NCBI GenBank assembly: GCA_963811025.1
Contig: CAWEPX010000027.1
Coordinates: forward strand, 219,745-283,744
DNA from: an uncultured delta proteobacterium
GTDB lineage: Bacteria; Desulfobacterota; Deferrimicrobia; Deferrimicrobiales; Deferrimicrobiaceae
Direction: 5' to 3'
Length of the DNA stretch: 64,000 bases
This document shows, in pieces, positions 714-24,943 of this stretch. A program made the translations under genes and the position numbers. Every line of letters begins with the position of its first letter. Position 1 is the first letter of the stretch. Below the pieces are notes generated by a model. That model made no database searches and had not been told where the DNA came from. It saw only the letters and a list, made by a program, of their open reading frames with translations.

Positions 714-2190
714 CTACATCAGCATGGAGAGGATGGAGCGCTCGGCGATCTCCAGCACGGAGCGGGGGACGAGCCCCAGGACGACGACGACGACCGCCGA
801 GGCGGACAGGGCCAGCGAGAAGAGGATTCGCGGCGGGCGCGGGACGGAAACCTCGCCGTCCGCAGGCATCATGTACATGTAGACGACCAGCCGCAGGTAA
901 TAGTAGACGGAGGCGGCGCTGTTCAGCACGCCGATGACGGCAAGCCAGATATAGCCGTTCTTCACCGCGGCGCTGAAGAGGTAGAACTTCCCGACGAACC
1001 CGGCCGTCGGCGGAATCCCCCCCAGCGACACGAGAAACAGGGTGAGCAGGGCGCCCAGCACCGGGTACTTGAAGCCGATCCCTTTAAGGTGCGCGATGTC
1101 GTACCCGTCGTCCTCCTTCCGGGCGATGAGGATCACCACGCCGAATGCGCCCATGTTCATGAACGCGTACACCAGGAGGTAGAACAGGGCGGCCTGTCCG
1201 CCGAGGACGTCGCCGGAGACGAGCCCGACCAGGACATACCCGGCGTGGGCGATCGAGGAGTAGGCGAGCAGCCGCTTGACGTTGTCCTGCACGAGCGCCG
1301 ACAGGTTCCCCACGGTCATCGTCAGCACGGCCAGTACCCAGAGGACCTTCCAAAGGGCGGGCTGCACGCCGGGAAGGGCCACCAGGAGCACCCGGATGAG
1401 CGCGGCGAAGGCGGCCGCCTTGACCGCGGCGGACATGAAGGCGGTGACAACCGTCGGGGCCCCTTCGTACGCGTCCGGGGTCCACATGTGGAAGGGGACC
1501 AGCGAAACCTTGAAGCCGAACCCCACCAGGAGCAGGCCCGTCCCGATGAGAAAGAGCGGGCTCGAAACGATCCGCGGATCATAGAGCATCGTCGCCAGGA
1601 CGGGGATCTTCGTCGTGCCGGTGGCCGCGTACATCAGGGCGATGCCGTAGAGGAGGAATCCCGAGGCGAAGGCGCCCAGGAGGAAGTACTTCAGGGCCCC
1701 CTCGACCGAGGACATCCGGTTGCGGTGGAACCCGACGAGGACGTAGATCGGTATCGACAGCGTCTCCAGGCCGAGGAAGACCGTCATCAGGTCGGTTCCC
1801 TTGGCCATGAACATCATCCCGGACGTGGAGAGCAGGATGAGCGCGTAGAACTCCCCCTTGCTTCGTCCCTTCCCACTCGGAGTAGCCGGACGCCATCAGG
1901 AAGGTGAGCGCGCAGGCGGAGAGGATCACGACGTCGAAGAAGGCGCCCGCCCCGTCGTGGACGATCATCCCCGAGAACCCCTCGATCTTTCCCTGTCCGA
2001 GAGCGTATACGGAGAAGAGGGCGAGCCCGATGCCGACCAGCCCCGAGCCGCAGAGAACCCGCTTGTTCTCCTCGGGAATCACCAGGTCGAGGAGAAGAAG
2101 GATGATCGCCGTGCCCACCACGAGGATCTCGGGGAGGATGCTGTAGAGGCTCGTCACCAGCGCCGGCATGTCCGGGGAGAACGGTCCCAT
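714..2190 (-). CDS. nuoN: NADH-quinone oxidoreductase subunit N, interrupted by a 1-nt frameshift in a C5/G5 run (~1853-1857)
   Basis: ORF 1579..2190 gives the NuoN N-terminus (...MASGYSEWEG) and ORF 714..1817 gives the rest (MMFMAKGTDLMTVFLGLETLSIPIYVL...). They join as ...SEWEGTKQGG/EFYALILLSTSGMMFMAKG by changing one base in caagggggag. Confidence 0.9.
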
Positions 2191-2197
2191 CGTTGCT

Positions 2198-3772
2198 TTA
2201 CTTCCTCACGTCGAAGTAGCGGACGAACAGCGTCTCCCCCGGGGGAGAGCCTTCGAGCGCCGCCTGGCGTTTCGTCTCGATCCGCGTCACGAGGGCTTCC
2301 ACGGAGGCGTCCATCTTCCGGAGGAACGTCTGGGGGTAAACGCCGATCCAGAACACGAACACGAGGAGGGGCAGCATGTACGCCACCTCCCGCGCGTTCA
2401 TGTCCGCGAGGTGGCGGTTCTTCTCGTTCGTGACCGTGCCGAACATCACCCGCTGGAACATCCAGAGCAGGTAGACCGCCGCGAAGATGACTCCGCTGGC
2501 CGCCACCACCGTGAGCGCCCGCATCGAATGAAACGCCCCCAACAGGATGAGGAACTCCCCGACGAAGCCGTTCAGGCCCGGGAGGCCGATCGAGGAGAGG
2601 GTAACGATCATGAAGAAGGCGGCGTACAGGGGAATCACCCGGGAGAGCCCGCCGTACTCCGAGATCAGGCGGGTGTGACGCCTCTCGTAGATGATGCCGA
2701 CCAGGAGGAAGAGGGCCCCCGTCGAGATGCCGTGGTTGACCATCTGGAGGATTCCCCCCTCGATCCCCTGGATGTTGAACGCGAACAGGCCGAGCATCAC
2801 GAAACCCAGGTGGGCCACGGAGGAGTAGGCCACGAGCTTCTTGATGTCCTTCTGGACCATCGCCACGAAGGCCCCGTAGAGGATCCCGATGACCGCAAGC
2901 GTCGCCATGAGCGGTGTCAGGTCCACGGCGGCCACGGGGAACAGGGGCATCGCGAACCGCAGGAAACCGTACGTCCCCATCTTCAGGAGGACCGCCGCCA
3001 GGATGACCGATCCCGCGGTGGGGGCGTCCACGTGGGCGTCGGGCAGCCACGTGTGGAACGGGAACATCGGGACCTTGAAGGCGAACGCCAGCGCGAACGC
3101 GGCGAACATCCAGAACTGGAGCTTCACGGGGATAGCGAGTTCGTACATGGCCAGGAGATCGGTGGAGTAGACGCCGGTCGCCCGGTAGTGGTGAAAATAG
3201 AGCGCGATGATGGCGACAAGCATCAGCACCGAGCCCGTGAAGGTGAACAGGAAGAACTTGATCGCCGAGTAGATGCGCCGCCCTCCCCCCCACACGCCGA
3301 TCAGGAAGTACATCGGGATGAGCACGAGCTCCCAGAAGATGTAGAACAGGAAGAGGTCGACCGCGAGGAACACGCCCACCATCCCGACCTCGAGGAGGAG
3401 CATGAAGATCATGAACTCCTTCACGTGCTTCTCGACGGACGCGTAGGTGGACAGGATGGTGACGGGCATCAGGAGCGTGGTCAGCATCAGGAGCCACAGG
3501 GAGATGCCGTCCACCCCCACGTGGTAGCTGATCCCGAACTGCGGAATCCAGGGGACCTTCTGGACGAACTGCATCGCGGCGGTCGACCCGTCGAACAGGA
3601 TCGCGACGGGCAGGGACAGGAGGAACTCCGCGAGCGTGATGCCGAAAGCCAGGTTCTTGAGGAGCCTCCCGTTCTCCCTCGGCAGGAACACGAGCGCGAG
3701 GGCCCCGGCAAGCGGGAAGAAGATCAGCACGGTCAGGATGTTCGCCATCAGCCCCTGCGGCAGAAAGTTCAT
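2198..3772 (-). CDS. nuoM: NADH-quinone oxidoreductase subunit M
   Basis: MNFLPQGLMANILTVLIFFPLAGALALVF... matches the NuoM/ND4 family. ATG at 3772 is preceded by GAGGAG. Confidence 0.95.
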   Translation of the reverse strand: MNFLPQGLMANILTVLIFFPLAGALALVFLPRENGRLLKNLAFGITLAEFLLSLPVAILFDGSTAAMQFVQKVPWIPQFGISYHVGVDGISLWLLMLTTLLMPVTILSTYASVEKHVKEFMIFMLLLEVGMVGVFLAVDLFLFYIFWELVLIPMYFLIGVWGGGRRIYSAIKFFLFTFTGSVLMLVAIIALYFHHYRATGVYSTDLLAMYELAIPVKLQFWMFAAFALAFAFKVPMFPFHTWLPDAHVDAPTAGSVILAAVLLKMGTYGFLRFAMPLFPVAAVDLTPLMATLAVIGILYGAFVAMVQKDIKKLVAYSSVAHLGFVMLGLFAFNIQGIEGGILQMVNHGISTGALFLLVGIIYERRHTRLISEYGGLSRVIPLYAAFFMIVTLSSIGLPGLNGFVGEFLILLGAFHSMRALTVVAASGVIFAAVYLLWMFQRVMFGTVTNEKNRHLADMNAREVAYMLPLLVFVFWIGVYPQTFLRKMDASVEALVTRIETKRQAALEGSPPGETLFVRYFDVRK

Positions 3773-3839
3773 CGGCACTCGCTCCTCGTGCGGCGTCTCG
3801 TAATTGGCTCGACGCACCGATCAGCCGTCGGAATAGCCC

Positions 3840-3990
3840 GGGACAGGCGGCCGTCCCGGGCACAGGGCGCAGCGGGGGGGTCCTCGGAGCGGCCTGTGGA
3901 GCGAGGCAGAGATTGCGTCGAGCGGAACCGGCAGCGAGCGGGCGCAAGGTCGCGAGCGTAGCGGAGAGGACGCCCCCCGCGAGCCCGTGC
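3840..3990. repeat. GC-rich REP-like repeat, copy B, inside the nuo operon (nuoM-nuoL spacer)
   Basis: Unusually long (~280 bp) GC-rich spacer between nuoL and nuoM. gagcggaaccggcagcgagcgggcgcaaggtcgcgagcgtagcggagagg resembles copy A positions 596-650; tcctcggag and cgtgcgatggacc motifs are shared with copy C. Confidence 0.45.
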
Positions 3991-4051
3991 GATGGACCCG
4001 TTTGTCCATGTGTTTACGAGACGAAACACGATGTATCTCCCTTGGCCGCGC

Positions 4052-6100
4052 TCACGGCCATATCAGGAACCCGGCGAGGATCACCGCGCCCAGGAGCAGG
4101 GAAAGGGCATAGTTCCCCACCACGCCGGACTGCAGGCGCCTCGTCCTTGCACCCGCCCCGTTCACGAGGGCCGCGATGCCGTTTACGATCCCGTCGATAA
4201 ACGCCACGTCGAACGCTTCCCACAGCCAGATCGAGCCGTTCACGATCCTGCGGACGATGGCGGCGTCGTAGATCTCGTCCACGTAATATTTGTTCAGCAC
4301 CAGATCGTAGAGTCCCGGAACCCGGTCGGCGATCTCCCCGGGCTCCTCCGTGCGGACCCGGTACAGGTACCAGGCCAGCAAGATCCCGCACAGCGCCACG
4401 CCCACGGATGCGGCCATGAGCAGGTACTCGAGCGCCGCGGATGCATGGGCCTCCCCGTGCGCCGCCCCTTCCGCCCCGTGCGCGAAGACGGGGGCAAGCC
4501 ACTCCTCGAAGTAATTGTGGCCGCCGAGGACGTGGGGAATGCCGACCCAGCCGCCCGCAACCGCGAGGGCGGCAAGGATCATCAGGGGGACGGTCATCGA
4601 GTACGGGGATTCGTGGACATGCTTCTCCACCTCCGGATCCATCCGCGAATCTCCGAAGAAGGTCAGGAAGACCAGGCGGAACATGTAGAATGCCGTGATC
4701 CCCGCCGCGACCGTCCCGACCAGCCACAGGCCCACGTGGCCGTGCCCGGAGGAGAAGGACTTCCAGAGGATCTCGTCCTTGGAGAAGAAGCCGGACAGCC
4801 CGGGGATCCCCGAGATCGCCAGCGTTGCGATGAACATCGTGACGAAGGTCACGGGCAGGTGTTTTTTCAGGGAGCCCATCTTCCGCATGTCCTGCTCCCC
4901 GGCAAGGGCGTGGATCACCGACCCGGAGCCAAGGAACAGGAGCGCCTTGAAAAAGGCGTGGGTCATCAGGTGGAAGATCCCGGCGGTGAAGGCCCCCACG
5001 CCGCAGGCCAGGAACATGTAGCCGAGCTGGGAGACGGTGGAGTAGGCCAGCACCCGTTTTATGTCGTTCTGCGTGATCCCGATAATGGCGGAGAAGATCG
5101 CCGTCGCCGCGCCGACCACCGCCACCACCATCATGGAAGCCGGGGCCAGCAGGAAGAGAGCGTTCGTCCGGGCGACCATGTAGACCCCCGCCGTGACCAT
5201 CGTCGCGGCGTGGATCAGGGCGGAAACGGGGGTGGGTCCCTCCATCGCGTCGGGCAGCCAGACATAGAGCGGAATCTGGGCCGACTTGCCGGTGGCCCCC
5301 ACGAAGAGAAGGAGGGTGATCGCGGTGGCGACCCCGGTCGTGAGCGTGCCGCTCCCCATAAGACCCGGGATCCGCGCGAATACCTCGGTGTACTCGACGG
5401 ACCCGAAGGTCCAGAAGATGAGAAACATGGCCAGGAGGAAACCGAAATCGCCCACCCGGTTCACGACGAAGGCCTTCTTCCCGGCGTCGGCGGCGCTCTT
5501 CTTCTCGTACCAGTACCCGATCAGCAGGTAGGAGCACAGCCCCACCCCTTCCCACCCGATGAACATCAGGAGGAAGTTGCTGCCGAGGACGAGCAGGAGC
5601 ATCGCGAAGGTGAAGAGGTTCAGGTAGACGAAGTACCGCGCGAAGGCCCTCTCGTGGGCCATGTACCCCACGGAGTAGACGTGGATGAGGAAGCCGACGC
5701 CGGTGACCACCAGGATCATCACGGAAGAGAGCGGATCGAGCTGGAAGGCCGCCGGCGCCAGGAACGTCCCCGCCTGAATCCAGGGGAAGAGGACCTGGAC
5801 GAAGAGCCGGTCGTGCGGGGCCCTCGCGGCCAGGGCGAGGACGGCCAGGAGCGACACGACAAAGGAGGCGCCCACCACCGCGGGACCGAGAACCGCGACC
5901 ATCTTCCGGTACGGCGGGGCGGCGTGCGATTCCCCGTGCCCACGCCCGTGGTCCCCGCCAGGGGGATCGGACGGCCGGCGGGCGTCCTCCGCCAGGAGAA
6001 GCGGCCGCTCGGCTACGAGCGCGATCGCGCTGTTCACGATCACGCCCAGGAGAGGCAGCGCGGGGACGAGCCAGAGATATTCGAGGATTCCCCCTACCAC
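4052..6100 (-). CDS. nuoL: NADH-quinone oxidoreductase subunit L (GTG start), with a ~40-aa low-complexity insertion in the first loop
   Basis: Conserved NuoL/ND5 core (WEGVGLCSYLLIGYWYEKKSAADAGKKAF...). Inserted stretch AERPLLLAEDARRPSDPPGGDHGRGHGESHAAPPYR between TM1 and TM2; alternative frames there give no NuoL-like sequence. Confidence 0.93.
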   Translation of the reverse strand: MVGGILEYLWLVPALPLLGVIVNSAIALVAERPLLLAEDARRPSDPPGGDHGRGHGESHAAPPYRKMVAVLGPAVVGASFVVSLLAVLALAARAPHDRLFVQVLFPWIQAGTFLAPAAFQLDPLSSVMILVVTGVGFLIHVYSVGYMAHERAFARYFVYLNLFTFAMLLLVLGSNFLLMFIGWEGVGLCSYLLIGYWYEKKSAADAGKKAFVVNRVGDFGFLLAMFLIFWTFGSVEYTEVFARIPGLMGSGTLTTGVATAITLLLFVGATGKSAQIPLYVWLPDAMEGPTPVSALIHAATMVTAGVYMVARTNALFLLAPASMMVVAVVGAATAIFSAIIGITQNDIKRVLAYSTVSQLGYMFLACGVGAFTAGIFHLMTHAFFKALLFLGSGSVIHALAGEQDMRKMGSLKKHLPVTFVTMFIATLAISGIPGLSGFFSKDEILWKSFSSGHGHVGLWLVGTVAAGITAFYMFRLVFLTFFGDSRMDPEVEKHVHESPYSMTVPLMILAALAVAGGWVGIPHVLGGHNYFEEWLAPVFAHGAEGAAHGEAHASAALEYLLMAASVGVALCGILLAWYLYRVRTEEPGEIADRVPGLYDLVLNKYYVDEIYDAAIVRRIVNGSIWLWEAFDVAFIDGIVNGIAALVNGAGARTRRLQSGVVGNYALSLLLGAVILAGFLIWP

Positions 6101-6396
6101 TTGAGCACGCTCAGTTCCGTGATGTCGATCGTTTCCTTCAGGCGGTAGATCGCAATGAGGATCGCCAGCCCCACCGCGGCTTCGGCCGCCGCGACGGTCA
6201 TGACCATGAAGGCGAACACCGATCCCGTCGGGTCGCCCAGGTAGGACCCGACCGCGATGAAGGCCACGTTGACGGCGTTGAGCATGATCTCCACGCTCAT
6301 GATGATGATGAGGACGTTCTTGCGCGCCACCACCCCCGCAACGCCGATTCCGAACAGGATCCCGGAGAGAAGCAGATATGCCGACGGTTCCATCAT
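6094..6396 (-). CDS. nuoK: NADH-quinone oxidoreductase subunit K
   Basis: 100-aa protein with NuoK/ND4L family match; overlaps the nuoL start. Confidence 0.95.
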   Translation of the reverse strand: MMEPSAYLLLSGILFGIGVAGVVARKNVLIIIMSVEIMLNAVNVAFIAVGSYLGDPTGSVFAFMVMTVAAAEAAVGLAILIAIYRLKETIDITELSVLKW

Positions 6397-6439: not shown

Positions 6440-6928
6440 TCAGATCTTCCTCTTCGCCAGCACGATCGCCCCGATCACCGCGGCCAGCAGCAAAACCGAG
6501 GTGAGTTCGAACGCGAGGAGGTAATCGGTGAACAGCGCTCGCCCCACGGCCTCAACGGAGCCGGAGTCCGTGGCGGGAGTTCCCGCCATGACGAAGCGTC
6601 GGGCCACCAGCGCCGACTCGAGGATCAGCAACCCCGCGGCGGTCACACCCAGGAAGCGCAGTCCCGTCAGCCGCTCCATGGGCAGCCTGCTCTCCGGGAC
6701 GTTGATCAGCATGATCACGAAGATGAACAGGACGACCACCGCGCCCGCGTAGACGATGACCTGGATCACCGCGAGGAAGTGCGCCTGCCGGAGGGCGAAG
6801 AGCGCCGCGACGGCAAAGAGCGTGAGGATCAGGTAGAGCGCGGAGGTCATCGGGTGCCGCCGCGTGACCACCATGATCGCTCCGCCCACCGAGATCGCGC
6901 CGAATATGGCGAACAGGATCGGTTCCAT
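6440..6928 (-). CDS. nuoJ: NADH-quinone oxidoreductase subunit J
   Basis: 162-aa membrane protein matching NuoJ/ND6. Confidence 0.9.
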   Translation of the reverse strand: MEPILFAIFGAISVGGAIMVVTRRHPMTSALYLILTLFAVAALFALRQAHFLAVIQVIVYAGAVVVLFIFVIMLINVPESRLPMERLTGLRFLGVTAAGLLILESALVARRFVMAGTPATDSGSVEAVGRALFTDYLLAFELTSVLLLAAVIGAIVLAKRKI

Positions 6929-6935: not shown

Positions 6936-7421
6936 CTACTTTTCCAGCAGCATGTCGATCGAGAAGATGAGCTTCTCCCTCGTGAAATCCGGTGGCGTGT
7001 ACCAGCCCGTGTCCATCCGGATCGCGTCGCAGGGACACGCCTCGACGCAATGTCCGCAGAAGATGCACCGGAGCATGTCGATGTCGAAGCGCACCGGGTA
7101 CTTCTCGACCTTCGGGTCGGGGGATTCCCCCGCCACGATGGTGATGCACACCGCGGGGCACGCCGTGGAGCAGCAGAAGCACGCCACGCACCGGGGCGTC
7201 CCGTCGGACCGCTTCATCAGCCGGTGCAGGCCCCGGAACCTTGGGGGCATCACACGCCGCACCTCGGGGTACTCCATCGTGGCGATGTTCTCCTGGTGCC
7301 GCATGTTGCGCAGGAGATGCCCGATCGTCACCCCGAGCCCCTTCACGATCTCCAGGAGGTAGAGGCTCTCCCCCCCGGACATTTTCCGGGGCCGGGCGAC
7401 CTTTTTCACCCCGATCGTCAT
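6936..7421 (-). CDS. nuoI: NADH-quinone oxidoreductase subunit I (2x[4Fe-4S] ferredoxin)
   Basis: Two CxxCxxCxxxCP motifs (CVACFCCSTACP, CIFCGHCVEACP). Start taken at MTIGVKK (ATG 7419-7421), downstream of the nuoH stop. Confidence 0.9.
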   Translation of the reverse strand: MTIGVKKVARPRKMSGGESLYLLEIVKGLGVTIGHLLRNMRHQENIATMEYPEVRRVMPPRFRGLHRLMKRSDGTPRCVACFCCSTACPAVCITIVAGESPDPKVEKYPVRFDIDMLRCIFCGHCVEACPCDAIRMDTGWYTPPDFTREKLIFSIDMLLEK

Positions 7422-7428: not shown

Positions 7429-8529
7429 TCACCCGCCTCCGCCGACCAGGAGCAGAACAAGCCCCGTCACGAAGATGTTCGCCAGCGACAGGGGGAGCAG
7501 TACCTTCCAACCCAGCTGCATCACCTGGTCGTACCGGAACCGGGGGATCGTCCACCGGACCCAGATGAAGAGCCAGGCGAAGAAGAGCAGTTTCCCCACG
7601 AACGCCCCGATCCGCAGGAGGAGCACCAGGGCGCCGGGAAGCCCGAGGGAGATTCCCCCGGGAAGCAGGAAGCCGGAGTCCGCCAGGTAGGGGAACTGCC
7701 AGCCGCCGAAGAACAGCGTCGCGATCAGGGCCGAGCCTACCACCATGTGGACGTACTCGGCCATGAAGAAGATCGAGAACTTGAAGGAACCGTACTCCGT
7801 GTGGTACCCCGCGACGATCTCCGACTCTCCCTCCGGCAGGTCGAAGGGGGTCCGGTTCGCCTCCGCGTAGACCGCCACGAGAAAGAGGAGAAACCCGAGC
7901 GGCTGCAGGAACACGCCCCACTTCGGCACGATCCCCCACAGGAGCTCCCCCTGCGAGGCAACGATATCCGAGAGCCGGACCGACTGGAAGACCATGACCA
8001 GGCCGATGATGGAGAGCCCGAGGGAGACCTCGTAGGAGATCATCTGCGCCGAGGAGCGCAGTCCCCCCAGCAGGGGATACTTGCTGTTGGAGGCCCACCC
8101 CGCGAGGATCACGCCGTAGACCGCCATCCCCGAGATGGCGAAGATGTAGAGGATCCCCACGTTCAGGTCCGCGACCTGCAGTGCGACCGGGCGTCCCGCG
8201 ATCACGACCGGCGGCCCGAAGGGGATGACCGCGAAGGTCATCAGCGCCGGGGCCAGGGCGAACATCGGCGCAATCTGGTAGAAGAGCCGGTGGGCGTGGT
8301 CCGGGATGAAGTCCTCCTTGAACAGGAGCTTGAGCGCGTCGGCGAGCGGATGGAACAGCCCTCCGAGGGTCAGCCCCAGGATCTTCGCCCGGTTGGGCCC
8401 GCGGCGGTCCTGGATATAGGCCGCTCCCTTGCGCTCCGCCCACACGAGGATCGGGACGAGGGAGAGGGTGAAGACGAGCATCACCGCCACCCGGGCCACG
8501 GACACCACGAGGTCGAACCACCCGTTCAT
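7429..8529 (-). CDS. nuoH: NADH-quinone oxidoreductase subunit H
   Basis: NuoH/ND1 family (…RRGPNRAKILGL…, …AEANRTPFDLPEGESEIV…). Confidence 0.95.
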   Translation of the reverse strand: MNGWFDLVVSVARVAVMLVFTLSLVPILVWAERKGAAYIQDRRGPNRAKILGLTLGGLFHPLADALKLLFKEDFIPDHAHRLFYQIAPMFALAPALMTFAVIPFGPPVVIAGRPVALQVADLNVGILYIFAISGMAVYGVILAGWASNSKYPLLGGLRSSAQMISYEVSLGLSIIGLVMVFQSVRLSDIVASQGELLWGIVPKWGVFLQPLGFLLFLVAVYAEANRTPFDLPEGESEIVAGYHTEYGSFKFSIFFMAEYVHMVVGSALIATLFFGGWQFPYLADSGFLLPGGISLGLPGALVLLLRIGAFVGKLLFFAWLFIWVRWTIPRFRYDQVMQLGWKVLLPLSLANIFVTGLVLLLVGGGG

Positions 8530-14481: not shown

Positions 14482-14494
14482 CGGCCCCTTCCTG

Positions 14495-15979: not shown

Positions 15980-17509
15980 CTAGATCACCATTTTCACGAT
16001 ATCGACAAGATGATTCAGGGACGAGCTCATCAGGTTGAGCACCGGCATCGGGTACACGCCGAGGATAAGCGTCATCAGCGCCAGCGGGGCAAGGCAGAAG
16101 ATCTCCCGTGCGTTGATCTCCTCGAGCTGGGCGTACTTGGGGTTGAGCGGCCCCAGGAAGACGCGCTGGAGAGCCCACAGGTGGAACGCTGCCACGATGA
16201 TGATCCCCGAGGCGGCGATTATCACGATCGTCCGGAAAGCGTCGAACGACCCGATGAAGACCATGGCCTCGGCGATGAACCCGGAGAACCCCGGCAGGCC
16301 AAGGGACGCGAAGAAGGCCACGGTGATGAAAAAGGTATAGACCGGGACGACCGCCCCCAGGCCCCCGAACCCGTCGATGTCCCGGTGGTGCGCCCGGTCG
16401 TAGACGACGCCGACCAGGAAGAACAACATGGACGTGATCATGCCGTGGGAGAACATCTGGAACGAGGCGCCGATCATCCCGGCGGGCGTGAGCGCCGCCA
16501 TCCCCAGGAGGACAAACCCCATATGGCTTACCGAGGAGTAGGCGACCATTTTCTTGAGGTCTGACTGGGCCATGGCGCACAGCGCCCCGTAGACGATGTT
16601 GATCGCCCCCAGGACGGCCATCGGGATGACGAACCACTTCGTCACGTCGGGAAAGATCGGAAAGGAGATCCGCATCAGCCCGTACGTTCCCATCTTCAGG
16701 AGGATCCCCGCCAGGATGACCGAGATGGCGGTCGGCGCCTCGACGTGGGCGTCGGGGAGCCACGTGTGGAACGGGAAGAGGGGGACCTTGATCGCGAAAC
16801 CGATGAAGAGGCCGAGGAACATGAGAACCCGGATGTCGAATCCCTGGAGCCACCCGTTGTGGGTCGTCTGCTGCATGAAGTGGAGCATGTTGAAGGTGTG
16901 CCCGCCCGTCTCCGGGTTGACCGTGTTGAAATAGAGCGCCAGCATCACCAGAAGCATCAGGACCGAGCCCAGGAGCGTGTAGAGGAAGAACTTGATCGCC
17001 GCATATTCCCTGCGCGGCCCGCCCCAGATCCCGATGAGGAAGTACATCGGCAGGAGCATCACTTCCCAGAAGACGTAGAACAGGAAGAAGTCAAGGGCGC
17101 AGAAAACGCCCATCATGCCGGTCTCGAGCAGGAGGAGAAGGGCCATGTATCCCTTGATCTGTTTCGCGATATTCCAGGAACCGATCACCGCCAGGAAGGA
17201 GATGATCGCCGTGAGGATGATCATCGGCATCGAGATCCCGTCGGCTCCCAGGAAATACTCGACATTGATCGAAGGGATCCAGGAATAGTGCTCGACGAAC
17301 TGGAACTGGCTCGCCACGTTCACGCCGGCCACCGTGCGGTCGAAGGTGAACCAGAGCTGGACCGCGAGGGGGATGGGAAGAAACGAGGCCACAGCGGCGA
17401 TTCTCTTGACGGATTCGTCCCTGCCCCCGGGCATCAGGAGGATCACCGCCGCGCCGGCCAGGGGAAGGAACGTCATCAGGCTCAGGATGTGGTTGTTGAT
17501 AAAGTCCAA
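15980..17509 (-). CDS. nuoM2: NuoM paralog (cluster 2)
   Basis: 509 aa NuoM/ND4 family. Confidence 0.92.
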   Translation of the reverse strand: MDFINNHILSLMTFLPLAGAAVILLMPGGRDESVKRIAAVASFLPIPLAVQLWFTFDRTVAGVNVASQFQFVEHYSWIPSINVEYFLGADGISMPMIILTAIISFLAVIGSWNIAKQIKGYMALLLLLETGMMGVFCALDFFLFYVFWEVMLLPMYFLIGIWGGPRREYAAIKFFLYTLLGSVLMLLVMLALYFNTVNPETGGHTFNMLHFMQQTTHNGWLQGFDIRVLMFLGLFIGFAIKVPLFPFHTWLPDAHVEAPTAISVILAGILLKMGTYGLMRISFPIFPDVTKWFVIPMAVLGAINIVYGALCAMAQSDLKKMVAYSSVSHMGFVLLGMAALTPAGMIGASFQMFSHGMITSMLFFLVGVVYDRAHHRDIDGFGGLGAVVPVYTFFITVAFFASLGLPGFSGFIAEAMVFIGSFDAFRTIVIIAASGIIIVAAFHLWALQRVFLGPLNPKYAQLEEINAREIFCLAPLALMTLILGVYPMPVLNLMSSSLNHLVDIVKMVI

Positions 17510-17525: not shown

Positions 17526-19730
17526 TCAGAAAACTTTTATCAGGAAAATGATCAGCGCCCCGCCGGCCAGCACGAACACGTAGTGGTAGAGCTTCCCGGT
17601 CTGGAAACGGCGGAAGATGGATCCACTGCCGATCGTGACATCGGCCACGCCGTTCACCGCGCCGTCGACCACACCGTTGTCGAACTTTCCCGTGAGATAC
17701 GAGATCCAGACGCCCATCTGCGCGCAGAGGTTGACGAGTCCGTCCACGACGTGCAGGTCGAACCACCCCAGCGCGCGGGAAAAGGCCTTCGTCCCGTTGA
17801 CGGCCGTCGCCTCGTACAGCTCGTCGAAGTACCACTTGTTCAGGAGGAACGTGTGGACGGGCCGGAACGCGGAGGCCACCTTGTCGGGGTTGATCCACCC
17901 GAACAGGTAGACGACGAACGCAAGCCCGATCCCCAGGGCACCGAAGAGAATCGAAAGACGCATCGCCCAGGTGTGGGCCACGTGCGCCAGGTGCTCGTCG
18001 TGACCGCCCCCTTCCGTTCCCTGCGCGGCGTGCCCCCCGGAAGCCTCGTGCTCTCCCGCCGTCGCCGCACCCTCGTGGGTTGTCGGGGAGGCGTGGCCTT
18101 CCTTTGCGGCGTGCGCCGCATCCGGGGGCCGGACCGGTTCCGCGGCATGGGCGGAGGAGCTCCACGCATAGGGCGTCTCAAGGGCCCCGGCGTGCGAAGT
18201 CGACGCCGCTTCCCCCATGTGCCCCCCCGAGGAAGGCGCGGAAACCGCGGCGACGACCGGGATCACGGGAGCCGGCTTCTTGACCAGGTCGCCGAACCAC
18301 CCGCTGTACCAGAAGGAGAACGACAGCCCCGCCAGGACCACGAGGGGAACCCACATGTTGGGAGGCGACTCGTGGGCATGATCGAACTTGTGCTGGTCCT
18401 TCGGCTTTCCCAGGAACGTGAGGATCACGAGCCGGAACATGTAGAAGGCCGTCATCCCCGCGGTCAGGAGCGCTCCAGCGAACAGGATCATGTGCTGCGT
18501 ATTCTTCATCCCGAACTCGAGAGCGGCGCCCAGGATCATGTCCTTGCTGTAGAAGCCGGAAAAGAACGGGACCCCCGATATCGCGAGCGTGGCGATGAGG
18601 AAGGTGATGAAGGTGATCGGCATCTTCTTTCGCAGCCCGCCCATGTCGGTGATCTCCTGGCTGTGCACCGCGTGGATCACCGACCCGGAGCCGAGGAACA
18701 GGCACGCCTTGAAGGCGGCGTGGGTGGTCAGGTGCGCCAGGCCCGCAGTGAAGCCCCCTACCCCCAGGCCCAGGATCATGTATCCGAGCTGGGAGCAGGT
18801 GGAGTAGGCCAGGACCTTCTTGATGTCGGTCGCCGTGATCGCGATCGTGCCCGCGATGAACAGGGTGATGAGCCCGATGTAGGCGATGACGAGGAAGGCG
18901 TCCGGCGTGAAGATCGGGTATACGCGCCCGACGAGGTAAACGCCCGCGGCCACCATCGTCGCCGCATGGATCAACGCCGAGACCGGCGTGGGGCCTTCCA
19001 TCGCGTCAGGGAGCCAGACGTGGAGCGGGAACTGCGCCGATTTGCCGATCGCGCCGCAGAAGATCCCGATCCCCGCCAGGGTCAGAAGCGTCCCCGATAT
19101 CTTGCCGTCGGCGATCGCCCGGAACACCTCGTCGTACCCCAGCACCCCGGTCGTGGCGAACAGGAGCAGGAACCCGAGCAGGAACCCGAAATCGCCGATC
19201 CGGTTCACGATGAACGCCTTCTTCCCGGCGTCGGCGGCCGACTTCTTCTCGAACCAGAACCCGATGAGCGCGTAGGAGGAAAATCCGACCAGCTCCCAGA
19301 AGATATAGATGAAGAAGAAGCTCTCGGCCAGGACAAGCCCGAGCATGGAGAACGAGAAGATCGAGAGGTAGGCGAAGAACCGGCTGTACTTCGGGTCCCC
19401 GTGCATGTAGCCCACCGAGAACAGGTGAACGAGGAACGAGACGAGGGTCACGACGACGAGCATCACGGCCGTCAGGTTGTCGACGAGGATCCCCGCGTTG
19501 ATGACGAACCGGCCGTTCAGGGACAGCCACGGGACCACGACGTGATACTTGAAGTTCGGATCGTAGATCCGGAAGACCTCGAAGAAGATCACGAGCGACA
19601 TCACGAGCCCTGCGCCGATCGTGGCGAGGGAGACCCAGTCTCCCTTGCGGGGAAGCCGCTTCCCGACCGCGATGTTGATGAAGAAGGAGAGCAGCGGCAG
19701 GAACGGGATGATGTAGGCGTATCGGATCAA
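17526..19730 (-). CDS. nuoL2: NuoL paralog (cluster 2) with a ~100-aa His/Ala/Gly/Glu-rich insertion near the C-terminus
   Basis: NuoL core (WELVGFSSYALIGFWFEKKSAADAGKKAF...) plus the insertion SAPSSGGHMGEAASTSHAG...HDEHLAHVAH before the last TM helix. Confidence 0.92.
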   Translation of the reverse strand: MIRYAYIIPFLPLLSFFINIAVGKRLPRKGDWVSLATIGAGLVMSLVIFFEVFRIYDPNFKYHVVVPWLSLNGRFVINAGILVDNLTAVMLVVVTLVSFLVHLFSVGYMHGDPKYSRFFAYLSIFSFSMLGLVLAESFFFIYIFWELVGFSSYALIGFWFEKKSAADAGKKAFIVNRIGDFGFLLGFLLLFATTGVLGYDEVFRAIADGKISGTLLTLAGIGIFCGAIGKSAQFPLHVWLPDAMEGPTPVSALIHAATMVAAGVYLVGRVYPIFTPDAFLVIAYIGLITLFIAGTIAITATDIKKVLAYSTCSQLGYMILGLGVGGFTAGLAHLTTHAAFKACLFLGSGSVIHAVHSQEITDMGGLRKKMPITFITFLIATLAISGVPFFSGFYSKDMILGAALEFGMKNTQHMILFAGALLTAGMTAFYMFRLVILTFLGKPKDQHKFDHAHESPPNMWVPLVVLAGLSFSFWYSGWFGDLVKKPAPVIPVVAAVSAPSSGGHMGEAASTSHAGALETPYAWSSSAHAAEPVRPPDAAHAAKEGHASPTTHEGAATAGEHEASGGHAAQGTEGGGHDEHLAHVAHTWAMRLSILFGALGIGLAFVVYLFGWINPDKVASAFRPVHTFLLNKWYFDELYEATAVNGTKAFSRALGWFDLHVVDGLVNLCAQMGVWISYLTGKFDNGVVDGAVNGVADVTIGSGSIFRRFQTGKLYHYVFVLAGGALIIFLIKVF

Positions 19731-19759: not shown

Positions 19760-20062
19760 TCAACCACGGAGGTGGTCGGCCGCGTCCACTTCCACGGTGC
19801 CCGTGGTGGCGAACAGCCGCAGGAAGATGGCCAGCGCGACGGCCGCCTCGGCGGCCGCGAGCACGATGACGAAAACGGCGAAGATCTGCCCCCCGATCAG
19901 CCGTGACACGTAGTGCGAAAACGCCACGAAATTGATGTTGGCGGCGTTCAGGACCAGTTCCACCCCCATGAGGACGGCCACCGCGTTGCGCCGCGTCAGG
20001 ATCGTGTACAGGCCGCAGCAGAAAATAGCGGCGCCGATGACCAGCAGTTTGTCCAGGGTCAT
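19760..20062 (-). CDS. nuoK2: NuoK paralog (cluster 2)
   Basis: 100 aa NuoK family. Confidence 0.92.
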   Translation of the reverse strand: MTLDKLLVIGAAIFCCGLYTILTRRNAVAVLMGVELVLNAANINFVAFSHYVSRLIGGQIFAVFVIVLAAAEAAVALAIFLRLFATTGTVEVDAADHLRG

Positions 20063-20596
20063 CTACTTCGGCTCCTCCATGTCGGGTCTCGGGATATCGG
20101 GTCGATCGGGGCGCGAAAGGAGCGCCGCGCCGATGAGGGCGGCGAGAAGCAGCACGGAGGCGACCTCGAACGGGAGCAGGTACCGGGTCATCAGAAGTTC
20201 GCCGATCTCGGCCGTGGTCGGCTGGTACGTGATCTGCGCCTTCGGTACAAAGACCGGGGAAACCGCCGTGTACGCCAGCACGCCGAACAGGGCAAGGCAG
20301 GTCACCGCCGCGGGGATCCGGAAATGAACGGGGTTGGACAGCTTGACGGAGGAGATCCGGCTCGAGAGGAACACCGCGAACATGATCAGCACGAGAATCC
20401 CCCCGACGTACACCAGCACCTGCGTGGCCGCCAGGAAGTCCGCAGAGAGGAGCACGTACAGCCCCGCCACGCCGCCAAATGTGAACAGCAGCGCCACCGC
20501 TGCGTAGATGATGTTCGGGAGGGTCGCCACGAGAATCGCGGAGCCGACCGTGAGGGCAGCCAGCACGTAGAAGATCAGATCCACCGGTCCCTTCAT
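20063..20596 (-). CDS. nuoJ2: NuoJ paralog (cluster 2)
   Basis: 177 aa NuoJ family. Confidence 0.88.
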   Translation of the reverse strand: MKGPVDLIFYVLAALTVGSAILVATLPNIIYAAVALLFTFGGVAGLYVLLSADFLAATQVLVYVGGILVLIMFAVFLSSRISSVKLSNPVHFRIPAAVTCLALFGVLAYTAVSPVFVPKAQITYQPTTAEIGELLMTRYLLPFEVASVLLLAALIGAALLSRPDRPDIPRPDMEEPK

Positions 20597-21291
20597 GGTG
20601 TCTCCCCCTCGCCCTTTTTCGGGGGCTCTCCCGGCTTTCCGGGCTCCCCCTTCGCTCCTTCCGCGGGCTTTTTCTCCGCGGCGTCTTTCTCTGCAGGGTT
20701 CGCCGCCGCAGCCGGCTGCGATGCGGGCTGGCCTGCTGCCGCCTCTTTCCTTCCGTTATCGGAAGCCGGGCCGGAGGCCTTGGGTTCCTCGGCGGCCTTT
20801 GCGGCCTTCTCCGCCTCCGCTTGCGCCGCGGCTTCCGCCACCTGCTTCGCCACGCGGGCCTTGATCTCGTTCGCATCCTCGTGGACGAAGTGGAGGATCA
20901 GCTCCCCGCGGTTCACGGAGGCCTTCTCGTAGCCGCTGGTATGCTTGAGGGACTTCGGGGGGCACACCTCGACGCAGAGCCCGCAGTACATGCAGCGTCC
21001 GACGTCGATATCGTAGGAGGCCAGCACCATCTTCTTGTCGGCCCCCCGGACGGCCTCGAGGGAGATGCAGTCGACCGGGCATACCCGCACGCACATCGTG
21101 CAGCTCGTGCACCTCTTGATGTCGTTGTACAGGAATCCGCGGAACCGCTCCGAGGGCTCCCAGCGCTCCTCGGGGTACTGGAGGGTGATCGTCTCCCTCG
21201 GATCCACCCCGTAGCGCGCGGTGATTCGCATTCCCTTCGCGGTGGTCGCCACGGCTTCCCAGATGTCGTAAAAATATGCCTTCAGTCCCAT
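20593..21291 (-). CDS. nuoI2: NuoI paralog (cluster 2) with an ~80-aa Ala/Glu/Lys/Pro-rich C-terminal tail
   Basis: Two 4Fe-4S motifs (CTSCTMCVRVCP, CMYCGLCVEVCP); low-complexity tail AEAAAQAEAEKAAKAAEEPKAS.... Confidence 0.9.
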   Translation of the reverse strand: MGLKAYFYDIWEAVATTAKGMRITARYGVDPRETITLQYPEERWEPSERFRGFLYNDIKRCTSCTMCVRVCPVDCISLEAVRGADKKMVLASYDIDVGRCMYCGLCVEVCPPKSLKHTSGYEKASVNRGELILHFVHEDANEIKARVAKQVAEAAAQAEAEKAAKAAEEPKASGPASDNGRKEAAAGQPASQPAAAANPAEKDAAEKKPAEGAKGEPGKPGEPPKKGEGETP

Positions 21292-21295: not shown

Positions 21296-22414
21296 TCATC
21301 CGATAAGCGATACGATCATCTGGGGGATCCCCTTCCCGTGGAACAGCAGAAGCCAAAGGGAGACGCCCAGGAGGTTGAAAAACGTCAGCGGAACCAAGTA
21401 CTTCCACGCCATGCGCATCAGCTGGTCCACGCGCAGCCGGGGCAGTGTCCACCGGACCCACATCATGAGCAGGACAAGACCCAGCGTCTTGGTGAGGAAC
21501 ACGCCCAGCGAGAACAGGTTGCCCCAGACGGCGGGAAGCGCCTCCCCGTTCAGAAACGGCACGTGCCAACCCCCCAGGAAGCAGGAGGTCGCCAGCGCGG
21601 ACACGACGAACATGTCCCCGTACTCGGCGAGAAAGAAGAAAGCGAACCGGATCCCGGAGTACTCCACATGGTAGCCGGAGACGAGCTCCGACTCGGCCTC
21701 CGGGATATCGAAGGGGGTCCGGTTGGTCTCGGCGAGCGCGGCGACGAAATACAGGAAGAAGGAAAAGAAGGTGAACGGGTTGTGGAAGAGGTTCCACCCG
21801 AAGATCCCCAACAGCCCTCCCTGGGACCGCACGATGTCCTGCAGGGAGAGGGAGCCGGCGATGAGGACCGCGGGAAGGAGCGCCATCCCCACCGGGATCT
21901 CGTACGAGACGATCTGCGCGCAACAACGCATACCCCCGAGCAGGGCCCACTTGTTGTTGGACGACCACCCTGCGAGCAATACCCCCACCACCACGAGGGA
22001 GGTGACGGCCATCACGTAGTAGATCCCGATGTTCAGGTCGGAAGCGATCAGCCCCATCCCGAAGGGGACGACCACGAAGGCGGCAAAGGAACCGACGAAC
22101 ACGAGGTACGGCGCCAGGGCGAAGAGGAACCGGTCGGCATGGGTCGGGATGATGTCCTCCTTCAGGAGGAGCTTGATCCCGTCGGCCAGGAACTGGAGCA
22201 GTCCCACGGGACCGACCCGGTTCGGCCCGACGCGCGCCTGGATGTCGCCTGCCACCTTCCGCTCCACGTAGGTCGCCAGCCCCGCGTACGTAAGGGCGAA
22301 GGTGAGGACAACCGCGGCGGCCACGACCATGACCAGGAGGGTGATCGACCACAGCGGAACGCCCGAGAGCACCGGAACGGCGTTTACCAGCGATATTGCA
22401 AGGGATTCCATCAT
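21296..22414 (-). CDS. nuoH2: NuoH paralog (cluster 2)
   Basis: Start MMESLAISL...; NuoH core with ...AETNRTPFDIPEAESELV. Lies immediately downstream of nuoD2, with no E/F/G genes between. Confidence 0.92.
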   Translation of the reverse strand: MMESLAISLVNAVPVLSGVPLWSITLLVMVVAAAVVLTFALTYAGLATYVERKVAGDIQARVGPNRVGPVGLLQFLADGIKLLLKEDIIPTHADRFLFALAPYLVFVGSFAAFVVVPFGMGLIASDLNIGIYYVMAVTSLVVVGVLLAGWSSNNKWALLGGMRCCAQIVSYEIPVGMALLPAVLIAGSLSLQDIVRSQGGLLGIFGWNLFHNPFTFFSFFLYFVAALAETNRTPFDIPEAESELVSGYHVEYSGIRFAFFFLAEYGDMFVVSALATSCFLGGWHVPFLNGEALPAVWGNLFSLGVFLTKTLGLVLLMMWVRWTLPRLRVDQLMRMAWKYLVPLTFFNLLGVSLWLLLFHGKGIPQMIVSLIG

Positions 22415-22416: not shown

Positions 22417-23547
22417 TTACCGGTCGATTTCCGGAAGGATGATATCGAAGCTGCCGATGACCGCCACGACGTCGGCGATCATCAGCCCCTTGGTGATCTT
22501 CTCGAAGATGTTCATCGTCACGAAGGAGGGGGCGCGGATCTTGAGGCGATACGGGTTCACGGTTCCGTCGCTGATCAGGTAGATCCCGGTCTCCCCGCGG
22601 GGGTTCTCCGCGCGGAAGTACACCTCCCCGACAGGGGGCTTGAACATCCGGGGAACCTTGGCCATCACGGGCCCCTCGGGGATCTGGGCGATCGCCTGGC
22701 GCAGGATCTTCACGCTTTCCCGCATCTCGTTGATCCGCACCATGTACCGGTCGAAGCAGTCCCCCACCGTCCCCCGCTCCCCCGTCCCGACGCAGACGTC
22801 GAAGTCGATCTTCGGGTAGACCGAGTACGGCTCGTTCTTCCGAAGGTCGAACGGAACGCCGGAGCCCCTGAGGTTCGGCCCCGTGAGCCCGTAGGCGACG
22901 GCATCCTCCGGCGTCGCGACCGCCACGTCGGCCAGGCGGTGGACGAAGATCTTGTTGTAGGAGATCAGCTTGTTGTACTCGGGAATCTTCGGCTCGAAGT
23001 AGTCGAGGAACTCTTTCGTCTTCTCGAGGAACCGGTCCGGCAGGTCGGCCGAAACGCCGCCGATGCGGACGTAATTGTACGTCAGGCGGTTGCCGCAGAT
23101 GTCCTCGAACAGGTCGTTGATCCGCTCCCGCTCGCGGATGGCGTAGAGAAACGGCGTGAAGGCCCCCATGTCGGCGGTGAACGACCCGAAGGCGATCAGG
23201 TGCGAGGAGATCCGGTTCAGCTCGCACACGATCACGCGGATGTATTCCGCCCGCTCGGGAACCTCGATGCCGGCCAGCTTCTCCACCGTCCAGGCCCAAG
23301 CCGCGTTGCAGTTCATCGAGGCGAGGTAGTCGAGCCGGTCGGTGAAGGGCATGAACTGCGGGTACGTGACCCGTTCGCCGATCTTTTCCAGCGCCCGGTG
23401 CAGGTACCCCACGTCCGGCTTGGCGTTGACCACGACCTCGCCGTCTGTCCGCAGGATCACCCGGAGCACCCCGTGGGTGCTCGGGTGCTGCGGACCCATG
23501 TTGATGAGCATCTCCTCCGTGGGGAGCGCTGCGGCGTTTGACTTCAT
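22417..23547 (-). CDS. nuoD2: NuoD paralog (cluster 2)
   Basis: 376 aa 49-kDa subunit family (NMGPQHPSTHG...). Confidence 0.93.
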   Translation of the reverse strand: MKSNAAALPTEEMLINMGPQHPSTHGVLRVILRTDGEVVVNAKPDVGYLHRALEKIGERVTYPQFMPFTDRLDYLASMNCNAAWAWTVEKLAGIEVPERAEYIRVIVCELNRISSHLIAFGSFTADMGAFTPFLYAIRERERINDLFEDICGNRLTYNYVRIGGVSADLPDRFLEKTKEFLDYFEPKIPEYNKLISYNKIFVHRLADVAVATPEDAVAYGLTGPNLRGSGVPFDLRKNEPYSVYPKIDFDVCVGTGERGTVGDCFDRYMVRINEMRESVKILRQAIAQIPEGPVMAKVPRMFKPPVGEVYFRAENPRGETGIYLISDGTVNPYRLKIRAPSFVTMNIFEKITKGLMIADVVAVIGSFDIILPEIDR

Positions 23548-24014
23548 ACCTTGATCCCGTGGTAAAACTCGGGGTATTTGTAATCCTTCCGAAGCGGGTG
23601 TCCCTCCCAGTCCTCCGGGAGAAGGATGCGGCGCAGGTCCCAGGACCCCTCAAAGACGATTCCGAACAGGTCGAACGCTTCCCTCTCCTGGAAATTCGCC
23701 GCGGGCCACACTTCGTCGACGCTCGGCAGCGATGGAGCCTCCTTGGGGAGGTATGCCTTGACCCCGATCCGATGTCCGATCGCAAGAGAGTGGAGGTGGT
23801 AGGCAACGGCGAACCGGTCCGGGTAGTCGACGCCGGACAGGCACATCAGCGAGTCGAACTTCATCGCGGGGTCGTCGCGCAGGAACCGTCCGATTTCCCT
23901 GACCTTCTCCGGGGACACAACGAGGAACGCGGGACGGAATCCCTCCTCCTGGAGCTCTACCGCCGCCTCTCCGAACCTTGCCTGAATCTTCTCGAAGATC
24001 TCTTTCGGTTCCAA
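23544..24014 (-). CDS. nuoC2: NuoC paralog (cluster 2)
   Basis: 156 aa 30-kDa subunit family. Confidence 0.92.
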   Translation of the reverse strand: MEPKEIFEKIQARFGEAAVELQEEGFRPAFLVVSPEKVREIGRFLRDDPAMKFDSLMCLSGVDYPDRFAVAYHLHSLAIGHRIGVKAYLPKEAPSLPSVDEVWPAANFQEREAFDLFGIVFEGSWDLRRILLPEDWEGHPLRKDYKYPEFYHGIKV

Positions 24015-24023
24015 CGGTTTCCT

Positions 24024-24551
24024 TTACGCCTTCGCCGCGAAATTTTTCCTCTGATCGATGATCTTCTGCAGCTTGATGATGCCGTCGATCAGCGCCTCGG
24101 GACGGGGGGGACATCCGGGAACGTAAACGTCCACCGGGATGAGCAGGTCCACTCCCTTGACCACGCAGTACGAATCCTTGTAGAAGGGGCCACCCGTGTT
24201 GGCGCAGGACCCCATGGAAATCACGTACTTGGGATCGGGCATCTGCTCGTACAGGCGGATCAACCGTTCCGCCATCTTGTGCGTGATGGTCCCCGCGACG
24301 ATCATCAGGTCCGACTGCCGGGGGGTCGCCCGGAAGACGGCGCCGAACCGGTCGAGGTCGTACCGTGAGGCGCCGGCCTGCATCAGCTCGATACCGCAAC
24401 AGGCCGTCGCAAACAGAAGGTACCAGAGCGAGGATCTCCGGCACCAGTTTATGAACTTGTCGGCATTGCCCACCATGACATGCGCTTCGGGGCCTAAGGT
24501 CCCCGGGGCCAAAACGGGGGCCGGACTGATCCGTGTAGAATCGTGGCTCAT
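24024..24551 (-). CDS. nuoB2: NuoB paralog (cluster 2)
   Basis: MSHDST...[10 protein letters not shown]...GCPP; the ATG overlaps the nuoA2 TGA (ATGA). Confidence 0.9.
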
Positions 24552-24943
24552 TTCCCTTCCTTCGGGGACGGGGATTCCTGGACGGTTCGCACCCAATCGA
24601 GGTCTCCCTCCTTCCACAGGTAGGCCAGGCCCGTGAGAAGGATGACGATGAAGATGAACGCCTCCACGAACGCAAGGAGGCCCAGGCGCCGGAAGACCAC
24701 GGCCCACGGGTAGAGCAGTGCCACCTCCACGTCGAAGATGATGAAGATCAGGGCCACAACGTAGAAGCGGATGTTGAACTGCACCCAGGAGGAGCCGACC
24801 GGGATCTCGCCGCACTCATAGGTGGAAAGCTTGACCGGAGAGGGGTTGCGCGGACTCAGCAGCCGGGAGATCCCCAGCATGAGGGCCACGGTCACCGCGC
24901 CGAGCACGATAAACACAAGAACTGTTGCAAAATTATCGAGCAT
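24548..24943 (-). CDS. nuoA2: NuoA paralog (cluster 2)
   Basis: 131 aa NuoA family. Confidence 0.9.

Follow-up and report, generated by a model that had tools for sequence, protein, structure and literature searches.

Two complex I gene sets joined head-to-tail in a 24.2-kb array of Deferrimicrobiaceae: an 11-gene NDH-1-like set followed by a 14-gene nuoA-N set

A stretch of 64,000 nucleotides from an uncultured delta proteobacterium of the family Deferrimicrobiaceae (GenBank contig CAWEPX010000027.1, positions 219,745 to 283,744; hereafter the window) carries two consecutive gene sets for complex I (nuo). The 25 nuo genes all lie on the minus strand and form a 24.2-kb array between positions 24943 and 714. 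The window represents a member of the family from sediment, different from Ca. Deferrimicrobium borealis; the names Deferrimicrobiaceae, MBNT15 and 'Deltaproteobacteria CSP1-8' are used for the same lineage. Because the GC content of the window is 60-66%, coding frames were chosen by third-position GC (GC3) and subsequently checked with the NCBIfam hidden Markov models (HMMs). Each open reading frame matched the subunit anticipated for it (E-values between 1e-26 and 1e-231). The first-pass annotation of this DNA had listed 25 co-oriented nuo genes and suggested profile searches for each subunit; all 25 were found on one strand and assigned as expected. With the array running along the minus strand, the 11 upstream genes (U set) have the high coordinates, and the 14 downstream genes (D set) the low ones.

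The U set spans positions 24943-14495 in the order nuoA-B-C-D-H-I-J-K-L-M-N, without nuoEFG. Its intergenic gaps are all 29 nt or shorter, and only 2 nt separate the stop of nuoD2 (22417) from the start of nuoH2 (22414), so that there is no space for nuoE, nuoF, nuoG or accessory genes. Gene order and spacing hence agree with the earlier description of a set lacking NuoEFG. The ligands of the N2 cluster are kept in NuoB2 (CCGIE / GSCA / PGCPP, i.e., CC...C...C), and NuoI2 has two 4Fe-4S motifs (2 x CxxCxxCxxxCP). In NuoD2, the histidine of GPQHPSTHG and the tyrosine of DRLDY at the quinone site are conserved, and a motif check showed that the cysteines (CxxC) serving as NiFe ligands are absent. 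Two membrane glutamates are retained in NuoK2, the glutamate of transmembrane helix 5 (TM5) and the lysine of TM7 in NuoL2, and the TM7 lysine motif is present in NuoL2, NuoM2 and NuoN2. Since the tested Fe-S, quinone-site and pump residues are all retained, the U set looks like a functional quinone reductase and proton pump, neither a hydrogenase nor a decaying copy. Two of its proteins carry low-complexity segments. NuoI2 ends in a disordered tail of ~85-90 aa (20593-20860), rich in Ala, Glu, Lys and Pro and with a net charge near zero; the length of this tail varies across the family, and some other phyla have such a tail too. NuoL2 contains an insert of ~95 aa, rich in His, Ala, Gly and Glu, before the lateral helix (window ~17930-18220).

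The D set comprises nuoA-N at 14481-714, with the NuoE/F/G region at 11875-8526, and the same order is found in two related loci, L003 and L085. The two sets meet at a very short junction: the stop codon TGA of nuoN2 (14497-14495) is followed by CAGGAAGGGGCCG and then by the GTG start of nuoA (14481). The separation of only 13 bp given in the first-pass annotation can be read directly at 14482-14494. No terminator, i.e., no hairpin with a T-run, was detected at the junction in the scan of the window or in the spacers of relatives. In all relatives aligned, the spacer measures ~7-30 nt, and a Shine-Dalgarno sequence is present wherever the nuoA start could be resolved. These short spacers are kept across more than 25% protein divergence and are too short to hold a terminator plus a promoter.

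A promoter-like block is found instead 5' of nuoA2, in the 161-nt region between this gene and a divergent gene of the peptidase U32 family. The block is near-invariant in seven aligned family members, and TGTATACA within it is an 8-bp palindrome. Both of its motifs occur once each in the window and are not repeated at the junction. The consensus promoter scan also returned TTGACC-16-TAGAGT at 25077-25050. The regulatory role of the block is putative. A hairpin is predicted in the leader between the block and nuoA2. It is identical in L005 and L010, while L007-L009 have a hairpin of different sequence at the same place, and it may act as a stability element or attenuator. Neither the upstream block nor the leader hairpin has an Rfam match; indeed, Rfam and tRNA scans of the entire window gave no match. 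The short terminator-free spacers and the single conserved block upstream of nuoA2 favor one long transcript, and it is likely that the 25 genes are co-transcribed from one upstream promoter. Co-transcription had already been proposed from the spacing at the junction. The family-wide lack of a terminator in the spacer and the sole conserved promoter-like block 5' of nuoA2 strengthen this proposal, which keeps the rank of a likely one. A promoter/terminator pair at 14481-14495, named at the time as a sign of two ordinary operons, was not seen: there is no terminator and no conserved promoter there.

To place the tandem among relatives, one genome per GTDB species was scanned with an alignment of NuoN2, and the 25 window proteins served as tblastn queries to derive gene order. 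An identical NuoN2 protein and the nuoN2-nuoA junction of the window were found on a JGI metagenome contig, in a Logan SRA assembly and on L085, an ENA contig of 1.39 Mb that is 99.2% identical to the window. Homologs come from metagenome-assembled genomes (MAGs) labelled Candidatus Deferrimicrobiaceae or 'Deltaproteobacteria bacterium'. The order of 11 and then 14 genes was found in every locus of the lineage with enough flanking sequence (L001-L009 and L016; NuoN2 identity 68-100%), and the tandem was also confirmed in two relatives via precomputed gene calls. The next-closest relatives (45-51% identity) have a stand-alone 11-gene cluster and belong to Thermodesulfobacteriota, Myxococcales, Eisenbacteria, Fibrobacteraceae, Neomarinimicrobiota and Acidobacteriota. 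The 11-gene cluster type is thus widespread, and among the 80 loci examined those with a co-directional fusion to a 14-gene set all belonged to the Deferrimicrobiaceae/CSP1-8 group. The tandem is real, typical of the lineage and already in the literature. Calling it unusual, as was done in the first-pass annotation, is correct across bacteria but not within Deferrimicrobiaceae, where it is the norm and has been reported (PMC9386147).

Other arrangements were also met during this survey. Convergent pairs of nuo clusters, with 2-3 kb between them, occur in L053 (Terriglobia) and L081 (Planctomycetales); neighboring complex I gene sets thus exist in other phyla as well, though not fused head-to-tail. 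In L011 (a Cytophagia MAG) and L068 (an Anaerolineaceae MAG), tblastn gave hits for nuoA, H, J, K, L, M and N and none for B, C, D and I. These two clusters may be membrane-arm-only, or their Q-module genes may be encoded elsewhere.

The two sets are old paralogs, as corresponding subunits are only 32-53% identical. A recent duplication was rejected on account of this identity and because the U set is nearer to the stand-alone clusters of other phyla. In tblastn comparisons with the stand-alone 11-gene loci L012-L023 and L051, ten of the 11 U subunits give higher bit scores than the corresponding D subunits, apart from a near-tie for NuoC in L023; the exception is NuoL, with mixed results. For NuoD, for instance, identity to these clusters is 55-62% for the U copy versus 38-46% for the D copy. 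The placement of the U set rests on such similarity comparisons, i.e., on HMM, PDB and tblastn scores. Among solved structures, the best match of the U-set NuoD is NdhH of 6HUM (373 bits vs 355 for Thermus Nqo4), that of NuoH is chloroplast NdhA of 7EU3 (272 vs 235 for Thermus), and those of NuoI and NuoL are NdhI and NdhF1 of 6HUM (85 vs 41 and 488 vs 366 for Thermus, respectively). On the D side, NuoD is closest to Thermus Nqo4 (373 bits vs 364 for the mitochondrial 49-kDa subunit) and NuoH to the M. smegmatis subunit (256 bits vs 246 for E. coli and 245 for Thermus). By their best scores, the four U-set subunits tested therefore resemble the ferredoxin-dependent photosynthetic NDH-1, and the two from the D set resemble respiratory complex I. 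Subunits of Mbh and FHL reach 208, 201 and 118 bits, compared with the 373 bits of the U-set NuoD, which sets the latter apart from group-4 [NiFe] hydrogenases.

The equivalog models, nonetheless, stay below their cutoffs on the U set. This applies to Ndh (NdhH PRK07415, 419 vs 583; NdhI TIGR00403, 92 vs 302; Ndh subunit 5 PRK07376, 560 vs 963) as well as to Fpo (FpoD, 386 vs 600; FpoH, 286 vs 475; FpoL, 465 vs 1050; FpoI, 65 vs 180). Judged by these scores, the U set is NDH-1-like, yet a member of neither Ndh nor Fpo. An F420/Fpo-type donor, which the first-pass annotation had brought up, is disfavored, since the Fpo models are far under their cutoffs and no FpoF-like gene is found in the nuo cluster. 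A '2M'-type complex I with a second NuoM, reportedly described by Chadwick et al. in 2018, was considered as well; each set has one nuoM, and this type was rejected. The coordinates and model scores are collected in Table 1.

Table 1 Genes and sequence features of the 25-gene nuo array, from the upstream region of nuoA2 to nuoN (window coordinates; bits and cutoffs refer to the model named)
Feature	Coordinates	Strand	Length	Remarks
Promoter/operator-like block	25035..25091	-		T-run, GGTTGACTTG (-35-like TTGACT), ~16 nt, TAWYGT, then GTGTCGAT(C)TGTATACA
5'-leader hairpin	24981..25005	-	11-bp stem	followed by U-rich stretch; ~40 nt before nuoA2 start
nuoA2	24548..24943	-	131 aa	NF005839 NuoA, E=3.8e-36
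nuoB2	24024..24551	-	175 aa	NF005012 NuoB 242 bits, above cutoff 116
nuoC2	23544..24014	-	156 aa	TIGR01961 129 bits, above cutoff 122
nuoD2	22417..23547	-	376 aa	short form; NF008974 520 bits, TIGR01962 481 bits
nuoH2	21296..22414	-	372 aa	NF004741 349 bits, above cutoff 305
nuoI2	20593..21291	-	232 aa	
nuoJ2	20063..20596	-	177 aa	NF005163, E=2.2e-38
nuoK2	19760..20062	-	100 aa	
nuoL2	17526..19730	-	734 aa	NF005141 655 bits, above cutoff 556
nuoM2	15980..17509	-	509 aa	TIGR01972 607 bits
nuoN2	14495..15979	-	494 aa	TIGR01770 408 bits
Junction nuoN2-nuoA	14482..14494	-	13 nt	CAGGAAGGGGCCG, Shine-Dalgarno core
nuoA	14098..14481	-	127 aa	GTG start at 14481
nuoB	13604..14107	-	167 aa	
nuoC	13100..13591	-	163 aa	
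nuoD	11872..13092	-	406 aa	TIGR01962 495 bits, above cutoff 459
nuoE	11402..11875	-	157 aa	TIGR01958 190 bits, above cutoff 142
nuoF (NADH/FMN subunit)	10113..11384	-	423 aa	TIGR01959 585 bits, cutoff 559; start per L085 gene call
nuoG, short form	8526..10106	-	526 aa	TIGR01973 427 bits, below cutoff 470
nuoH	7429..8529	-	366 aa	
nuoI	6936..7421	-	161 aa	per L085 gene call
nuoJ	6440..6928	-	162 aa	
nuoK	6094..6396	-	100 aa	
nuoL	4052..6100	-	682 aa	TIGR01974 770 bits
nuoM	2198..3772	-	524 aa	TIGR01972 622 bits; start codon per L085
nuoN, split by 1-nt insertion	714..2190	-	491 aa	length with extra G (1861) removed

As for the D set, the first-pass annotation had described it as complete from A to N with a short NuoG. 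The gene content bears this out, but not the intactness, as nuoN is split at position 1861. NuoG stays below the TIGR01973 cutoff because of its short form, and its N-terminal Fe-S domains are present despite the low score. It belongs to a genuine short-NuoG lineage, as the length of 526 aa recurs in L003 and L085. The split in nuoN is due to a single extra G at 1861 relative to L085 (GAAGCAAG vs GAACAAG), outside any homopolymer run. The NuoN profile matches only positions 98-471 in the frame 714-1895, the first ~100 codons lie in another frame, and a GC3 frame switch within the gene coincides with the frameshift. In L085, nuoN is intact (491 aa), and the frame-repaired protein is 42% identical to NuoN2. 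The frameshift is probably an assembly error rather than a strain-specific pseudogenization. A GC3 frame switch near 31,890, in a CoA-transferase gene, suggests further indels in the window assembly and makes an indel the likelier cause in nuoN.

The frameshift had been overlooked in the first reading, and so had an insert of ~245 nt between nuoL and nuoM (3790..4045), which is GC-rich and folds strongly. The nuoL-nuoM gap of 234-279 nt (3773-4051) is the largest in the 25-gene array and exceeds the junction between the sets. In the related contig L087, the insert is absent and the spacer measures ~34 nt. Partial copies occur in intergenic positions at 592-658 of the window, 964-1102 of L010 and 15898-15971 of L005. 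The insert is a lineage-specific small dispersed repeat and looks similar to repetitive extragenic palindromes or miniature inverted-repeat transposable elements (REP/MITE-like). The gap was also considered as an internal regulatory site and rejected, since neither a promoter nor a terminator consensus was found in it and it corresponds to a dispersed-repeat insertion absent from L087.

Taken together, we consider it fairly probable that the array is a respiratory super-operon of 25 genes and 24.2 kb encoding two separate complex I-type proton pumps. RNA polymerase would start at the block ~100-150 nt 5' of nuoA2 and read through all 25 genes. NuoA2-N2 would form an NDH-1-like enzyme that reduces quinone and pumps protons autonomously, and NuoA-N of the D set would be an ordinary NADH:quinone oxidoreductase. 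Their linkage would enable NADH and reduced ferredoxin from the same oxidative metabolism to be re-oxidized together to the quinone pool. For the U set, the best guess from the sequence is a donor other than NADH, probably ferredoxin. Reduced ferredoxin is a plausible substrate because the reconstruction of the type genome lists pyruvate-, 2-oxoglutarate- and indolepyruvate:ferredoxin oxidoreductases (POR, OOR and IOR); Rnf is unmentioned there (PMC9386147).

Several points weigh against this proposal of two separate pumps on one transcript. Genes for a ferredoxin, a flavodoxin or FpoF-like or NuoEF-like proteins were not found in or beside the U set, and the separately encoded input module postulated in the first-pass annotation was not found in the 64-kb window either. 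The neighbors of stand-alone 11-gene clusters were considered as input modules and rejected, as none of the flanking genes is common to the clusters of different phyla. The cluster has no space for the ferredoxin-docking subunits of cyanobacteria (NdhS/V/O). A basic tail of Methanothrix FpoI has reportedly been proposed as a ferredoxin-docking arm; the NuoI2 tail was dismissed in such a role, being charge-neutral and variable in length. The 'flavodoxin-like' gene downstream of the array was likewise rejected as the U-set donor, since it encodes WrbA, an NAD(P)H:quinone oxidoreductase and not a carrier. Furthermore, the D-set nuoN is frameshifted in the window assembly. The NuoEFG subunits of the same putative transcript might in principle bind to the Q-module of the U set as well. 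A promoter within the coding sequence of nuoN2 is possible, and the promoter types of the host may lie outside the scan model.

Alternative explanations were also considered. Two neighboring operons could be transcribed independently, with a promoter in the 3' end of nuoN2 driving the 14-gene set and differential regulation as in the Rhodobacter sphaeroides isozymes. Complex I isozymes of other bacteria are indeed differentially expressed (PMC4453560), and a weak sigma-70-like match (TTGTCC-18-TATACT, 9/12) lies inside nuoN2 at 14577-14548. This match was, nevertheless, rejected as an internal promoter: the scan gave three promoter-like matches vs 1.7 expected, i.e., the chance level, its -35 element is not conserved, and its -10 element falls on conserved Tyr-Trp codons. 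Two independent operons are therefore unlikely, all the more so as no terminator precedes the match, the Shine-Dalgarno spacers persist in the diverged relatives, and the conserved upstream block has no second copy at the junction. An internal promoter would, besides, not stop transcripts that start further upstream from running through the junction. Alternatively, the single NuoEFG, encoded 2.6-6 kb downstream of the U set on the same strand, could serve both Q/P-modules. Both enzymes would then be NADH:quinone oxidoreductases differing in their membrane or quinone modules, e.g., in quinone type or pumping stoichiometry. The 25-gene unit has one nuoEFG, co-transcription would supply both cores, and the same proposal was made by Spero et al. 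for Syntrophobacter fumaroxidans (PMC4453560). Sharing of the N-module is rated lower because in many phyla the U-set clade functions with no EFG genes beside it, standing alone with no nuoEFG within 10 kb. The U subunits are also nearer to the N-module-free NDH-1 than to respiratory complex I, and a shared docking surface is not obvious in NuoB, NuoC, NuoD and NuoI, for which the 32-53% identity between the sets applies. A shared N-module is hence regarded as quite unlikely.

An artefact or a decayed locus, i.e., a chimeric assembly join or one set being a decaying pseudogene copy, is very improbable. The frameshift in the D-set nuoN and the repeat between nuoL and nuoM could be taken as signs of it. 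A misassembly was rejected, however, as the junction recurs in four data sources (JGI, Logan, ENA and NCBI) and in ~10 species-level genomes. The other 24 open reading frames are intact, with GC3 values of 0.80-0.94 and conserved catalytic residues. The intact nuoN of L085 and the similar frame switch in another window gene point to assembly indels. A bolder idea goes further and is improbable as it stands: the 25 genes might be an obligatory transcription unit for a modular complex I system in which either NuoEFG is exchanged between two cores, or ferredoxin and NADH pumps in a fixed ratio act as a quinone-mediated, proton-motive ferredoxin:NAD+ oxidoreductase replacing Rnf. If such a modular system existed, the lineage would be a natural system to find the donor and the docking mode of complex I without an N-module.

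The surroundings of the array were also inspected. A gene for a WrbA-type NAD(P)H:quinone oxidoreductase lies on the minus strand ~380 nt past nuoN (~1-332, cut by the start of the window; 16064-16675 in L085). WrbA is a third, non-pumping quinone reductase adjoining both complex I sets. On the other side, the divergent U32-family gene occupies 25105-25992 on the plus strand and has the same position in L001 and L003. It is weakly UbiU/TrhP-like (113 bits vs a cutoff of 440); an assignment to UbiU/UbiV was not adopted at this score. The gene may be linked to quinone biosynthesis. Otherwise, the window contains unrelated genes, which encode an AI-2E transporter, an acyl-CoA ligase, CoA-transferases, ATP synthase subunit a, ferritin, multihaem cytochromes and a sigma-54 activator, among others. 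Two adjoining CoA-transferase family III genes (~30898-32263 and 32267-33700, minus strand) have N-termini that look truncated. A PAS/sigma-54 activator, two multihaem c-type cytochromes and a rhodanese-domain protein are grouped at 45854-47314, 48668-51740 and 51759-53033. The cytochrome group may be a module for extracellular or metal respiration, which would fit the iron-reducing lifestyle proposed for the phylum.

The donor of the widespread 11-subunit complex I without an N-module has been sought since at least 2011. Its genetic fusion to a canonical NADH complex I suggests non-redundant roles used simultaneously, likely the re-oxidation of ferredoxin and of NADH from the same oxidative metabolism. 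Moreover, the compact 24-kb unit could be cloned or traced in metatranscriptomes. The hosts are uncultured, and the value of the present analysis lies in confirmation and detail rather than in discovery.

The closest known case is Ca. Deferrimicrobium borealis SHF-111, of the same family, with nuoABCDEFGHIJKLMN and nuoABCDHIJKLMN clusters (Begmatov et al. 2022, PMC9386147). Begmatov et al. gave 31-60% identity between the two sets, concluded that the duplication was not recent, and suggested that the complex without EFG may be fed by a donor such as reduced ferredoxin. Arrangement and interpretation are the same as in the window; both the tandem and the ferredoxin interpretation are thus already described for the family, and further literature searches gave no other description of the tandem. 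Their account consists of one sentence and does not include the order of the sets, the ~7-30 nt spacers, the conservation in the family, the upstream block or the NDH-1-like affinity. The present analysis adds the order of the sets, the family-wide short spacer, the single conserved upstream block, the NDH-1-like affinity, the nuoN frameshift and the nuoL-nuoM repeat.

Enzymes of 11 subunits are also known from anaerobes such as Desulfitobacterium hafniense and Dehalococcoides (Moparthi and Hagerhall 2011, PMC3144371; Willemin et al. 2024, PMC11238625). Their gene order and content are identical to those of the U set, the N-module is missing, and the residues of the Q-module and the pump are kept. 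For the Desulfitobacterium enzyme, the favored donors are ferredoxin, pyruvate:ferredoxin oxidoreductase (PFOR) or FeFe-hydrogenase (PMC11238625). In the part of PMC11238625 that refers to their work, Moparthi and Hagerhall are said to have found no common donor protein, and the lack of a conserved flanking gene in our comparison agrees with this. In contrast to the U set, which is fused head-to-tail to a 14-gene operon and carries long low-complexity insertions in NuoI2 and NuoL2, the clusters of these anaerobes stand alone and often encode the sole complex I. The NDH-1 of cyanobacteria and chloroplasts, a ferredoxin:plastoquinone oxidoreductase (6HUM, 6NBY, 7EU3), likewise has an 11-subunit core without an N-module. 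The U set differs from it in having neither genes for NdhL-V/NdhS nor space for them, and its host is a non-phototrophic relative within Desulfobacterota. Syntrophobacter fumaroxidans, finally, combines one nuoEFG with two copies of each remaining nuo gene (Spero et al. 2015, PMC4453560). It shares with the window two divergent complex I gene sets and a single nuoEFG. In the portion of PMC4453560 covered by a text search, the words 'tandem' and 'adjacent' have 0 occurrences and a head-to-tail or adjacent layout is not mentioned, whereas the two sets of the window are contiguous and probably form one transcript.

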